Positions 1-48,988 of a stretch of 64,000 bases of DNA are shown piece by piece. Under the pieces are notes generated by a model. The model saw only the letters and a program-made list of their open reading frames with translations, searched no databases and was not told the origin of the DNA. Source of the stretch: Escherichia phage 215Ecol030PP; sequence record PP328843.1; one strand, written 5' to 3'. The translations under genes were made by a program, and so were the position numbers. The stretch's first letter is position 1, and the number at the start of each line of letters is the position of its first letter.

Positions 1-3130
<3,130 letters not shown>

Positions 3131-14109: not shown

Positions 14110-15528
14110 TTATGGATAGGTATAGATGATACCAGTTTCTAAAGCAGTTTTATGAATGATGTATCCATTACGCGATTCTTGGACATCAACTTCTGGATAA
14201 TCTTTCATCATCTTCTGAAGAGTGTAACGATGCAGGTAGTATTTACTATCTGGATCTTCAGTTTTCCAATCTTTACCTTCTTCAGTCATTTTTTGGATTT
14301 CATCCATAACCCACCAACCGCACCAGATGTAAGCTGAGCTACGATGTGGAAGAGGATGAACATAAGGTAATTCACCTTCTGGTTCCGGAGCAGCTTTATC
14401 AGTTACCTGAACTTGACCTTCTGCTGTAATAGTTTTGCTATCATAATCAGCAGCAGTAACAGTTGCAGTAACTTCAATAGTTTGACTTCCAACAGATGAT
14501 GTATCAACGGTGTATACATTAGTTGACCCTTCTACAGGAGAAGAATCTTTCTTCCATGAATACGTAATTTGCGCTTCTTCCGGAGCATCCGTAACGTTAG
14601 CAGTAAATGTAGCCGAAGCATCTTGCTGAACATTAATAGAAGGAGGAGTCAATGTAACCTGTGGATTCATTGTCTTCTTATTAACTGTCAATGATACTTC
14701 ATTAGAAGTAACTTCCTTTTCATTATAATTTTCTGCAGTTACTTGGGCTACGCATTTAATTCTTTTTACTCCACTTGTAGTTGGAGTATAGTTAAATGTA
14801 GAGTTAGTTTCTCCACCAACTTGTGAATCATCTACATACCACTGATACGTAGCAGACGCTCCGTCAGGTTGAGAAGCTAATGCAGCAGTAAATTGAACCG
14901 GGGTTCCAATTACTCCAGCAGCAGGACTAGCAGGAGTTACTGCCAAGGTAGTTGTCTGTGTCTTTTTATTAACTGTCAATGATACTTCATTGGAAGTAAC
15001 GCTCAGTGCATCATAATCTGTCGCAGTTACTTGAGCTACACACTTAATTTTTTTAACTCCGCTTGTAGTAGGAGTATAATTGAATGTAGCAGAAGTTGCT
15101 TCGCTCACAGGAGAACCGTCAACGTACCATTGATACGTAGCAGATGCGCCCGATGGCTGCGAAGCTAAAGCAGCAGTAAATTCAACAGCTGTTCCGATTA
15201 CTCCTTCTGGAGGACTATTAGGAGTTACAGCTAAGGTAGTTGTCTGTGTCTTATTTTGAACTGTGATAGTTGTACTAATTTCAGCTGTTTCAGCTTCAGC
15301 TTCTGGAACTGTATTTGTTGCAACCACTTTAATAGTCTTTTGACCAGCAGGTCCTTTTAATACATAATTAAAGGTTGCTTCAGCTCCATCCTGTGGAACA
15401 TTATCTACACTCCAAGCATAGGTAATAGTTCCACCTTCAGTTTGACCACTGGGTGCAGCAGTAAACTGCTTGGTTTCATCAATAACCCCCGTTGGTGTTT
15501 TAGGAGTTATATCAACTGTAAAAGTCAT
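14110..15528 (-). CDS. hoc: highly immunogenic outer capsid protein Hoc, four Ig-like domains plus capsid-binding C-terminal domain
   Basis: 472 aa; C-terminal YIWCGWWVMDEIQKMTEEGKDWK... capsid-binding domain; two adjacent diverged 96-aa Ig-like units. Confidence 0.92.
   Translation of the reverse strand: MTFTVDITPKTPTGVIDETKQFTAAPSGQTEGGTITYAWSVDNVPQDGAEATFNYVLKGPAGQKTIKVVATNTVPEAEAETAEISTTITVQNKTQTTTLAVTPNSPPEGVIGTAVEFTAALASQPSGASATYQWYVDGSPVSEATSATFNYTPTTSGVKKIKCVAQVTATDYDALSVTSNEVSLTVNKKTQTTTLAVTPASPAAGVIGTPVQFTAALASQPDGASATYQWYVDDSQVGGETNSTFNYTPTTSGVKRIKCVAQVTAENYNEKEVTSNEVSLTVNKKTMNPQVTLTPPSINVQQDASATFTANVTDAPEEAQITYSWKKDSSPVEGSTNVYTVDTSSVGSQTIEVTATVTAADYDSKTITAEGQVQVTDKAAPEPEGELPYVHPLPHRSSAYIWCGWWVMDEIQKMTEEGKDWKTEDPDSKYYLHRYTLQKMMKDYPEVDVQESRNGYIIHKTALETGIIYTYP
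14677..15252 (-). repeat. tandem diverged duplication of a 288-bp Ig-like domain unit within hoc
   Basis: Hoc aa 93-188 and 189-284 both read KTQTTTLAVTP...TYQWYVD...EVSLTVNK; DNA about 80 percent identical. Confidence 0.8.
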
Positions 15529-41838: not shown

Positions 41839-42341
41839 TTAAAAGTATTTTTTAAAACTCATCATAACTTTATCATCAACATCATTATCAATCTGTGCAA
41901 CAAGGTAAGATGACAATTCTACTTCTTGTGGCGCAGATTGAACATTATCAGAATTAAGATATTCACGAATCCAAGGATATGGATGTTTAACCGGAGCATC
42001 GGTAATTGGGCATGGAAGACCACACTGCTTCATACGAGATACAGTTAAGTAATCAATAAAGCTCCACATGCTATTTGTATTTAATCCAGGAACATCTCCA
42101 TCTTTAAATAAATGAACTGCCCAATCTTTTTCTTGGCGGTTAACTTCCATGAAAATATCAACTGCTTCTTGTTCACACTCTTGAGCAATTTTAACCCATT
42201 GATCGCCATCAGTACCAGATTGAAGTTGACGAATAATATATTGGGTGCCTTTAAGGTGAAGCTGTTCATCGCGTGCAATGAACTTCATAATCTTGGCATT
42301 ACCTTCCATGATTTCCATATTCTTATGGAAGTTAAAGGTAC
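41839..42341 (-). CDS. nrdB: ribonucleotide reductase small subunit NrdB, exon 2
   Basis: Frame continues ...TFNFHKNMEIMEGNAKIM...; joins exon 1 in frame via codon T|GT (Cys). Confidence 0.85.
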
Positions 42342-42932
42342 CGTATGTTCGATTGAGCTCGCTAATTCTCAACCCGTTCTCTTATGAACTGCTGCATGTT
42401 ACCATGCAGTCCAGACTATATCACAATCCCGGAGGGATTCTCCCCATTTCGAGTCGCTTGACCCTACGTCCGAAGACTAGTCGTTGAACCTTGTTTTGCA
42501 ATTGTCGCCGTGCCATCGTTTATATGTTGATGGTGATAAATCTTTCTTATCACAATATGGACAATTCAATTGAATTCTATTTGGATTTAATTTACATCTG
42601 TCATTATGTTTTAGATAAAATCCAGGACCTTTACCAATGTGACCGCAGAAATCACATGTGATTTCTTTTTGTGCAGGATGGGTCCCGTTCTTAACCATTT
42701 CTAATGTTTTGCTGATGTTCTTTTCTTATGGTCTTCCATCAGAATCTTTAGGTATAGGTCCGTTAGCATCTATCCAAATTTTTCTATAGTTCAATTGTGC
42801 ATCCTCTTAAAAGTATAATCATATTATACTAATTAAAGGTGCAAGCAAAACCTTGGCTGCTAGTTTTCCATAAAGGACTTTCCAGCAATTAAAGGAGTTT
42901 TCGATAAACGTTACCGTTTAAAGGCGCATTTT
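42342..42932 (-). mobile_element. group I intron in nrdB with degenerate homing-endonuclease ORF
   Basis: In-frame stop right after exon 1; 3' region GACTGCATGGTAACATGCAG parallels td intron P7; splice sites placed after U (42933) and G (42342) restore a 1179-nt ORF. Confidence 0.75.
42477..42698 (-). pseudogene. truncated intron endonuclease remnant (I-TevIII-like)
   Basis: 73-codon ORF inside the nrdB intron with Cys/His cluster CDFCGH...CPYCDKK...HGDNC; too short for an intact endonuclease. Confidence 0.55.
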
Positions 42933-43608
42933 ACGCAAAAGATACATAAAAACGAATAGCTTCTAAGGCATTAATAACGTGCAAACAGAGGTAAAGAGAT
43001 TTCATTAAAGCACGTTTAGCTTCGGCTTCTTGTTTAATAGCTCGGTTTAAACGAAAGACGGCATCAGGAGATTCTTTAGCTAGTTCTACAAATTCTTTAG
43101 CATTTTCCCATTCACGGGTTTTAATCAGAACATCATCATAATAACGTCCAATTGATTCAGCACGTTTCATAATAGCTTCATCTAATACAATCTCATCAAA
43201 TACCTTCGATGGATCAGTATAAAGATTTCGCATGATATGAGTATATGAACGACTGTGAATAGTTTCACTAAAAGTCCATGTAGCAACCCATGTATCAAGA
43301 CTTGGGTCTGAAATTAATGACATAAGTACAGCAGACGGTGCACGGCCCTGAATGCTATCCAAAAGTGATTGATACTTCAGATTATTAGTAAAAATATCTT
43401 GCTGATATTGAGGAAGCTTATTAAACTGTGCAGCATCCATCATTAAGTTAACTTCTTCGGGACGCCAGAAAAAACTGATCTGCCGCTCAATGAGTTCTTC
43501 AAATACTCGATGTCGTTGAATATCATATCGAGCTAAACCTAATCCAGAACCAAAGAACATCGGTTCATTCAAAACATCAACAGGGGATGTATTAAAAACT
43601 GTACTCAT
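42933..43608 (-). CDS. nrdB: ribonucleotide reductase small subunit NrdB, exon 1
   Basis: N-terminal 225 aa ending ...LEAIRFYVSFA then intron. Confidence 0.88.
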
Positions 43609-43659
43609 AAATTTTCCTCTTAGTTAATAGTTAGTGACTCGTCCATGAGTCATATTATA

Positions 43660-46482: not shown

Positions 46483-46794
46483 TTACACCGCCATTTTTCC
46501 TTTCAAGACACCATGGGACTGATAATCTTTGAGAACGAAATCTTTAGGCCTGAGTTTAAGAATGTATTCCAATTGTTCTTTAGTAGAAAGATAGCGGAAT
46601 TTATAAGGCAATCCGCCTATTACCAGTTCACAAAGCTCTTTAGGTTCACGACGCAAAATTTCTTTACATTGTTCCACGTGATTCATATAGATATGAGTAT
46701 TACCACCAGAAAATATCAAATCTCCTGGAATAAGATTACACATCTTAGCTACAATATGAACTAACGCAGCATATGATGCAATGTTGAATGGAAG
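46483..46794 (-). CDS. td: thymidylate synthase, exon 2
   Basis: Begins CTT CCA TTC AAC (LPFN...) right after intron-terminal G; 103 codons. Confidence 0.88.
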   Translation of the reverse strand, partial: LPFNIASYAALVHIVAKMCNLIPGDLIFSGGNTHIYMNHVEQCKEILRREPKELCELVIGGLPYKFRYLSTKEQLEYILKLRPKDFVLKDYQSHGVLKGKMAV

Positions 46795-47056
46795 CATTAT
46801 GTTCAGATAAGGTCGTTAATCTTATCCCGGAATTATATCCAGCTGCATGTCACCATGCAGAGCAGACTATATCTCCAACTTGTTAAAGCAAGTTGTCTAT
46901 CGTTTCGAGTCACTTGACCCTACTCCCTAAAGGGATAGTCGTTAGGCATTTAGGTAGAACCAAAGTCCTACAATTTAGCACGGGATTGTCTACTAGAGAG
47001 GTTCCCCGTTTAGATAGATTACAAGTATAAGTCACCTTATACTCAGGCCTCAATTA
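46795..47056 (-). other. group I self-splicing intron in td, 262 nt, no endonuclease ORF
   Basis: Starts UAAUUGAGGCCUGAGUAUAAGG... right after exon-1 GGU and ends ...CUGAACAUAAUG, as recalled for the T4 td intron; only a 16-nt loop where T4 carries I-TevI. Confidence 0.8.
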
Positions 47057-47746
47057 ACCCAAGAAAACATCTACTGAGCGTTGATACCACTGCAAATCCA
47101 AATAGCCATTACGCACATTAAACTGATAGAACATATGACAAGGCGGTAATGCCATATATTTAAGTTCAGCTGGATTCCATGCAGAAACAATTTGACGCCT
47201 ATCATTTGGCAATTTTTTAATACGATCAATAACTTCTACAATTTGGTCTACACCGCCAAAATCACGCCATTGTTTTCCATAAATTGGACCAAGTTCACCG
47301 CTATGGTATCCTAAATCTTTTGCTTGATTTTCGTAATTTTCATCCCAGACTGTTTTGCCTTGAATTAATGAATCATGCTGAATTTGGTCTACACCGCCAA
47401 AATCACGCCATTGTTTTCCATAAATTGGACCAAGTTCACCGCTATGGTATCCTAAATCTTTTGCTTGATTTTCGTAATTTTCATCCCAGACTGTTTTGCC
47501 TTGAATTAATGAATCATGCTGAATTAATCGTAAATCATTTACGTTAGTACTTCCTGATAAGAACCAAAGTAGCTCAGCAATGCAAGCTTTCCAAGCGAGC
47601 TTCTTAGTTGTTACCGCAGGAAAACCTTTAGTTAAATCCCAGCGTAATTTAGTACCGAACAAAGCAATTGTTCCTGTGCCTGTTCGGTCATCGGTTTCAT
47701 AGCCATTTTCAAAAATGTCTTTAATTAAATCTTGGTATTGTTTCAT
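47057..47746 (-). CDS. td: thymidylate synthase, exon 1, carrying an in-frame 47-codon tandem duplication
   Basis: 230 codons; IQHDSLIQGKTVWDENYENQAKDLGYHSGELGPIYGKQWRDFGGVDQ occurs twice in tandem. Confidence 0.88.
47241..47522 (-). repeat. exact 141-bp tandem duplication (2 copies) inside td exon 1
   Basis: Copy 1 at 47241-47381 and copy 2 at 47382-47522 read identical by eye; short AATT-type microhomology at the junction. Confidence 0.85.
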
Positions 47747-47790: not shown

Positions 47791-48138
47791 TCAATACGGT
47801 TTAGCATCAAATTTTCTTTCGATTTCAGGAGTGAAATATAATTCTTTACCGCGTTTGGAAAAGCGACCAATAATATGATAATTATTCTCATCAAACGTAA
47901 TATTACCAATATCCATAGCTTTCAACCAAATATCGATATTTCTATCCAGCTTTATGTCAAAATTCCAATACGGAGAACTATTACCGAAAATACTGCAAGC
48001 AGATTCAGTGAAACAACTGCTATAAATCTTGTCTTTAGGAACTACTAATTGATAGACACCTTTAATAAACTGAGGACCCTGCCACTTTGGCTGTTTCGCG
48101 TCTTCTTCTAATAGAATAGGGTAATAATTAAAGTTCAT
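47791..48138 (-). CDS. hypothetical protein inserted between frd and td
   Basis: ORF track begins at GTG 48150; ATG at 48138 gives 115 aa (MNFNYYPILLEEDAKQPK...). Confidence 0.55.
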   Translation of the reverse strand: MNFNYYPILLEEDAKQPKWQGPQFIKGVYQLVVPKDKIYSSCFTESACSIFGNSSPYWNFDIKLDRNIDIWLKAMDIGNITFDENNYHIIGRFSKRGKELYFTPEIERKFDAKPY

Positions 48139-48158
48139 ATTTTCCGCCACGCGTTATT

Positions 48159-48988
<830 letters not shown>

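Follow-up and report, generated by a model that had tools for sequence, protein, structure and literature searches.

A td group I intron without its I-TevI gene in a T4-like phage: probably a natural deletion allele with a complete ribozyme core

How should one read a td group I intron that sits at its usual place in a T4-like phage and yet, at 262 nt, carries no homing-endonuclease gene? It could be a natural allele, a laboratory construct recombined into a phage, or an assembly artefact; if natural, it could have lost its endonuclease gene or never have received one; and in either case one may ask whether the RNA can still splice and whether the intron can still move. We address these questions in a stretch of 64,000 nucleotides, analysed as a whole and hereafter called the window. 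The joint explanation that we favor, and that we consider very probably correct, is that of a natural endonuclease-less td allele which arose by deletion, retains the full catalytic core and is expected to self-splice.

The window comes from a T4-like phage (Tequatrovirus), and the minus-strand genes follow each other in the order frd (48159-48743), a 119-aa ORF, td exon 1, the intron, td exon 2, nrdA.2, nrdA.1 and nrdA. The order from frd to nrdA is the same in T4, apart from the additional 119-aa ORF, at whose place the frd and td genes of T4 overlap. This ORF (47791-48150, minus strand; phrog_1928) gave no match in a Pfam search, and at the same spot related phages have an ORF of either 115-119 aa or 68 aa. 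The best matches to the 22-kb neighbourhood in the phage collection that we searched are only 95-96% identical, and the phage in the window is therefore none of the records in that collection. The elements of the td gene that matter here are the following:

47057 to 47746, minus strand: td (thymidylate synthase) exon 1, from the ORF list and Pfam PF00303
46795 to 47056, minus strand: td group I intron without a homing-endonuclease ORF, 262 nt
46795, minus strand: terminal guanosine (omega G) at the 3' splice site, aligned to the T4 intron end ...AACAUAAUG
46483 to 46794, minus strand: td exon 2, stop codon included (PF00303 profile positions 176-266, E 1e-23)

The intron interrupts the coding sequence within thymidylate synthase, at the same site as in T4 (...UUGGGU / CU...), and the exon ends match those of T4. 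Exon 1 covers positions 1-113 of the PF00303 profile together with a second stretch (E 3e-70), such that profile positions up to approximately 175 lie in exon 1 and positions 176-266 in exon 2. On the minus strand, the 5' splice site reads ...TTCTTGGGT(47057) followed by the intron start TAATTGAGGCC..., and at the 3' splice site the intron ends in ...CTGAACATAATG(46795), followed by exon 2 with CTTCCATTC(46794...); read over a longer distance, the two junctions are UUCUUGGGU(47057) / UAAUUGAGGCC ... CUGAACAUAAUG(46795) / CUUCCAUUC. If left unspliced, the exon 1 frame runs into a UAA formed by intron nt 1-3, while the computed spliced product, with 47057 joined to 46794, keeps the td reading frame. 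Identity to T4 is 96% for exon 1 and 87.5% for exon 2 (88-96% for the exons and flanks overall), and the spliced Td protein, once one copy of a duplication in exon 1 is removed, has 286 aa, 274 of which are identical to T4 Td.

To what extent is this the intron of T4? The Rfam model RF00028 (Intron_gpI) matches at 47066-46843 over its entire length (model positions 1-253 of 253) with 65.5 bits (E 2.2e-14), where the gathering score of 50 serves as the threshold for membership in the group I family; it is the sole match above that score within the 64 kb, and the td-specific P9.1/P9.2 extension falls outside the model. The last intron residue, G262 (window 46795), is the omega G that one expects of a group I intron. 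In the T4 reference (NC_000866), the intron has 1017 nt and the I-TevI ORF occupies intron nt 133-870. Aligned with it, the window intron is identical over nt 1-94 and agrees at 166 of its last 169 positions; exactly 755 nt, T4 intron nt 94-848, are absent, with the two retained stretches sharing one T. Of the three differences, A104C is located at the foot of P6a, G129A in the L7.1 loop and G232A in P9.2, where a G.U pair becomes A-U; two of them lie in the core outside the P6a region, and none disrupts a core helix. Although the T4 intron is much longer (1016/1017 nt, versus 262 nt in the window), it shares with the intron studied here the gene, the insertion site, the P1-P10 architecture including P7.1/P7.2 and P9.1/P9.2, and identical P1 and P10 guide pairings. 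In other words, the element is the T-even td group I intron, the same intron as that of T4. A first-pass annotation, made from the letters alone, had placed a 262-nt td group I intron at 46795-47056 with ends like those of T4, and both the covariance-model match at the canonical td site and the T4 alignment, with its identical first 94 nt, bear this out.

We wrote out P1, P2, P3, P4, P5, P6, P6a, P7, P7.1, P7.2, P8, P9, P9.1, P9.2 and P10 for the window; landmarks are the following:

47043 to 47048, minus strand: internal guide sequence GCCUGA, intron nt 9-14 (helix check; pairs kept in 10/10 introns)
46954 to 46971, minus strand: P6a hairpin, intron nt 86-103, 18 nt (T4 comparison and helix check)
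46936 to 46941, minus strand: P7 5' strand, intron nt 116-121 (invariant in the 10 aligned introns and equal to T4)
46863 to 46869, minus strand: P7 3' strand, intron nt 188-194 (helix check and 10-intron alignment)

All 79 of the 79 pairs in P1-P10 are canonical, including the P3/P7 pseudoknot and the 2-bp P10. In particular, P1 is formed by the exon 1 residues UUGGGU and the guide sequence GCCUGA, with the wobble pair U-1.G9 at the 5' splice site; P10 consists of A7-U and G8-C, pairing with the exon 2 residues CU; and the two strands of P7 (46936-46941 and 46863-46869) pair with each other and, together with P3, make up the core pseudoknot. P6a has a 7-bp stem, GUAGGAC/GUUCUAC, closed by the tetraloop UUUG, and at its foot the residues U85 and A104, pairable in T4, are U and C in the window. 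An alignment of 10 natural td introns gives standard pairs in 99.5% of the pair cells, as compared with 29-45% when the partners are slid by 1-3 columns. The 10 introns are closely related, so most pairs never vary; two-sided, compensatory changes occur in four pairs, namely one in P6a, one in P8 and two in P9.2. What is more, the thermodynamic centroid fold recovers 12 of the helices (P2, P3, P4, P5, P6, P6a, P7.1, P7.2, P8, P9, P9.1 and P9.2). All core helices P1-P10 can thus form, and the outcome that had been named as fatal to the annotation, a T4 core unable to form, was not seen.

Does the intron then splice? The core is nearly identical to that of T4, and T4 td introns from which the ORF was deleted in the laboratory do splice; on these grounds we infer, by analogy, that the window intron self-splices as well. 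A 265-nt ORF-deleted T4 td intron is a substrate for self-splicing in vitro (PMC13172499), and tdDelta1-3 and tdDeltaP6-2 are standard splicing constructs (PMC1920258), which supports the notion that loss of the L6a contents leaves splicing intact. The RNA would fold into the complete catalytic core and would go through the usual two guanosine-initiated transesterifications, so that exon 1, ending at 47057, would be joined in frame to exon 2, starting at 46794.

The missing 755 nt comprise the upstream region of I-TevI and its gene except for the final 7 codons, the trace of which is one further feature:

46942 to 46962, minus strand: relic of the I-TevI frame, the 6 last sense codons plus stop (W F Y L N A stop), from sequence comparison

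The same bases supply the 3' strands of P6a and P6 as well as the beginning of J6/7, and it is because of their role in P6a and P6 that the final codons were retained; in T4, likewise, the 3' end of the I-TevI ORF overlaps the intron core (PMC3073962). On its sense strand, the intron has ATG-started ORFs of at most 9 codons, and tblastn searches of the 64-kb window with I-TevI proteins (T4 I-TevI, its ortholog from EnC07 and the free-standing paralog of phage N2, with T4 MobE as a further query) returned nothing except a 21-aa tail that overlaps the intron core. The intact homing-endonuclease ORF (I-TevI, GIY-YIG) by which a mobile intron would be recognized is hence absent, as the annotation had stated. 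It had also described a 16-nt loop in place of the ORF; while the ORF is indeed gone, the "16 nt" are merely residues left unaligned by Rfam, and the real element is the 18-nt P6a hairpin. Its UUUG loop (46961-46964) is the deletion junction, and it is there that T4 has its 755 nt including I-TevI. The junction has no linker; its microhomology amounts to only 1 nt, and for this reason it does not itself reveal the mechanism.

What does the loss mean for mobility? I-TevI recognises a 38-bp site, within which its DNA-binding domain covers a primary binding region of approximately 20 bp that spans the point of intron insertion; in intronless DNA, the cuts fall 23/25 nt upstream of that point (PMC2988022). 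Typically, homing sites have the insertion site at their centre, such that a resident intron interrupts them and makes the allele immune (PMC3984707). Here the intron splits the 38-bp homing site, and the intron-bearing allele is therefore immune to I-TevI. This runs counter to the proposal of the first-pass annotation that the allele offers I-TevI-positive phages a target for intron homing (PMC2988022, PMC3984707). The occupied insertion site would accordingly protect the allele against the I-TevI of co-infecting phages, and the allele could gain the ORF only through ordinary homologous recombination. Since T4 nt 94-848 are missing, the 262-nt intron is not self-mobile; without I-TevI, it would be inherited passively together with td. 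The stretch upstream of the ORF that bears the I-TevI operator in T4 (PMC2988022) is deleted as well. A donor from which I-TevI had been deleted, tdDelta1-3, gave 1% homing, as opposed to 33% with the intact intron (PMC1865063), and by analogy the window allele should be a poor donor too. As a separate observation, phage N2 (ON645936) combines a 254-nt ORF-less td intron with a free-standing I-TevI paralog of 243 aa (46% identical), which lies at 2324-3055 on the strand opposite to td, about 260 nt downstream of exon 2 and in place of nrdA.1; collaborative or trans homing of the ORF-less intron could occur in that phage.

Short td introns are not confined to the window. A td intron at at least 90% identity is found in about 240 phage records, and 38 of these (approximately 32 distinct phages) have short forms, 250-445 nt in length, that represent four or more different deletion endpoints:

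262 nt: Escherichia phages vB_vPM_PD112 and vB_EcoM_CE1, junction same as in the window
263 nt: Escherichia phage BYEP01, junction same as in the window
254 nt: N2 and others; P6a is another hairpin, with 4 bp
250 nt: SEA1; P6a is likewise another hairpin, with 4 bp
315 nt: Klebsiella phage EI
320 nt: HP3, MLP2 and about 14 others
445 nt: G28, F1, 112 and others, with a 55-aa in-frame I-TevI remnant

PD112, CE1 and BYEP01 have the deletion junction GGACUUUGGUUC and the length class in common with the window. Their introns are 98.9% (PD112 and CE1) and 97.0% (BYEP01) identical to that of the window, with three substitutions, G6U, C104A and A174G, separating it from PD112 and CE1. Their td exons, by comparison, are only 91-94% identical to those of the window, which places the intron allele in a different exon background. 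In the records of all three phages, td is annotated as two CDSs only, without an intron feature. The short hairpin of N2 and SEA1 is GUUC-NNNN-GAAC. Relative to T4, the 315-, 320- and 445-nt deletions end at distinct short direct repeats (GGAAT, TTTAA-type and CATTTTAAA). The types represented by HP3/MLP2, EI and G28/F1/112 resemble the window in their intron core and in the process of I-TevI loss; unlike the window allele, which retains the core alone and none of the I-TevI upstream region, they keep fragments of the ORF or of that region. Given these distinct endpoints, the I-TevI ORF was lost several times independently, and the range of short alleles fits, as far as their sequences go, a repeated decay of the endonuclease gene. 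Beyond the phage records, an exact-pattern scan for the P6a deletion junction found none in IMG/VR and none in the GTDB genomes, and the E. coli complete-genome collection gave no match. Three junction matches in JGI metagenomes were set aside as chance occurrences, formed by an unrelated hairpin without td context. In phage EI (MN106245), the td exon 1 entry around the intron at 1501-1815 is labelled 'dTMP synthase, with intron of plasmid pMTL007C-E2'; its submitters took a natural td intron of 315 nt for the laboratory version used in ClosTron vectors.

The td gene of the window has a second peculiarity, which lies outside the intron, 183 nt upstream of the 5' splice site:

47240 to 47525, minus strand: perfect 141-bp tandem duplication in td exon 1 (TRF period 141, 100% matches)

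It amounts to 2 x 141 nt plus 4 nt, is in frame and adds 47 aa; its copies are bounded by AATT microhomology, and the duplicated residues include the conserved thymidylate synthase segment LGPIYGKQWR. In the 10 records, out of 358 phage records, that best match a query spanning the duplication junction, this query falls on a stretch of only 145 nt, meaning that the duplication is present in none of these 10, and an exact scan of IMG/VR for the same junction gave no match. The duplication is either a very recent spontaneous event or an assembly artefact; if real, it is probably damaging to Td. With 47 aa duplicated in frame, this genome may be under relaxed selection for td function and, in consequence, for splicing. 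We see no link between the duplication and the intron deletion. The td duplication mentioned in the first-pass annotation is indeed present in the sequence, and the annotation's suggestion that the region was recently rearranged holds for the 141-bp duplication in exon 1 only, and not for the unlinked deletion in the intron. Elsewhere in the window, a diverged tandem repeat at 14671-15264 (period 288 nt or 96 aa, 2.1 copies, 79% identity) probably represents repeated protein domains in a structural gene.

Could the intron have come from the laboratory, or could its shortness be an error of assembly? ORF-deleted T4 td introns of nearly equal length (265 nt) are common reagents (PMC13172499, PMC1920258), and the neighbouring exon carries an unusual perfect duplication, so that recombination of a construct of the tdDelta1-3, tdDeltaP6-2 or 265-nt type into a phage deserves consideration. 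These constructs do resemble the window intron in that the contents of L6a were removed, and they splice in vitro (PMC13172499, PMC1920258). That said, by their descriptions they derive from T4, whereas the window intron has wild-type polymorphisms and resides in a non-T4 genome. Namely, instead of T4 sequence in a T4 or vector context, one finds three substitutions, all of them shared with wild isolates, an exon 2 with the 87.5% identity given above, exons and flanks at 88-96% to T4, and a 22-kb neighbourhood that reaches at most about 96% to any phage record. The junction has neither a linker nor a restriction-site scar, and the identical junction occurs in PD112 as well as in CE1 and BYEP01 (China). 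A search of the plasmid collection produced no laboratory td construct and nothing vector-like, just a distant group I core in a Yersinia plasmid. We consequently regard a laboratory origin, which had been raised earlier on account of the resemblance to ORF-deleted constructs, as highly improbable. An assembly artefact, in which the true genome would have a full-length intron, strikes us as extremely improbable. The perfect tandem duplication in the same gene could hint at local misassembly; assemblers, however, collapse repeats, and the junction offers them no repeat, only 1 nt of microhomology. Moreover, three genomes that were sequenced independently have the same junction, and the outcome is a structurally exact P6a hairpin. 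Judged by its sequence and by its company in PD112, CE1 and BYEP01, the intron is a natural allele and not a laboratory construct, in line with the other possibility that had been put forward at the outset, that of a natural ORF-less variant.

If the allele is natural, was I-TevI lost from it, or had I-TevI never been there? One could argue that the 262-nt allele is ancestral, a surviving pre-invasion, 'empty' form that segregates beside I-TevI alleles and is shuffled among them by recombination, and that I-TevI entered the UUUG loop later, in other lineages. The "deletion" corresponds exactly to the loop of an intact hairpin, with an ambiguity of 1 nt; the last 7 I-TevI codons are core sequence, as one would expect if the ORF of an invader had read through into it ('core creep', PMC3073962); the ORF-less introns of N2 and SEA1 have a different short P6a hairpin, GUUC-NNNN-GAAC; and group I introns are thought to have been ORF-less ancestrally (PMC3073962). 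Against this, an ortholog of I-TevI (73% aa identity) occupies the same position within L6a in Karamvirus EnC07, a distant phage, while the window core differs from that of EnC07 at 19 positions and from that of T4 at only 2. In addition, among the loci with exactly the exon 2 protein of the window, 6 of the 6 examined carry the full 245-aa I-TevI, and elsewhere this ORF has been partly deleted on at least three further, independent occasions, which indicates that its loss is frequent. Core SNPs, for their part, occur in mixed combinations across introns with and without the ORF. The window intron is a mosaic whose 5' half resembles T4 and whose 3' half resembles TuIa, the latter half differing at only one position from the I-TevI-positive introns of TuIa and VEc20; BYEP01 shares the junction with the window and yet differs at 7 core sites. 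With SNP patterns this mosaic, core similarity cannot rigorously date the loss of the ORF, and we did not accept core SNP distances as decisive. On balance, we judge the ancestral reading to be unlikely and infer that the change was a deletion of I-TevI. If the 'empty' form were real after all, with the small probability that we attach to it, it would offer a natural acceptor in which the entry of an endonuclease gene into an intron loop, and the extension of its frame into the core, could be studied.

The td intron is not the only one in the window. The nrdB gene is also split by a T4-type group I intron, at approximately 42373-42930 on the minus strand, between the fragments 42931-43608 and 41839-42372. 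Its Rfam score of 35.7 bits (E 3e-7) is below the gathering score, the nrdB region including the intron is 94.8% identical to T4, and a 73-aa ORF at 42477-42698 matches the C-terminal part alone of intact I-TevIII. With only this fragment in nrdB and an ORF-less intron in td, both introns of the window are without a working endonuclease. The nrdB intron of T4, with its defunct I-TevIII remnant, is likewise a T-even group I intron with a decayed endonuclease gene; it differs from the td intron in that it lies in another gene, involves an HNH-family endonuclease and still has a 73-aa ORF fragment left. At 43609-43659, nrdA is directly followed by nrdB exon 1, the intervening mobE and nrdB.1 genes of T4 being absent; the tblastn search with T4 MobE found nothing in the window.

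The architecture of this endonuclease-less td allele already occurs, unannotated, in several GenBank phages, and established biology explains it. The finding matters little past annotation, where td should be given as one spliced gene with a 262-nt intron and not as two genes. Nonetheless, the allele is one data point on the life cycle of T4-like homing endonucleases, from invasion and fixation through decay and loss of the ORF to a ribozyme that is kept. Together with the approximately 32 other phages with short introns, it could support a population-level study of the rate at which I-TevI is lost, and the same set could show why ORF-less introns persist, be it because precise loss of the intron is rare or because the intron is useful.
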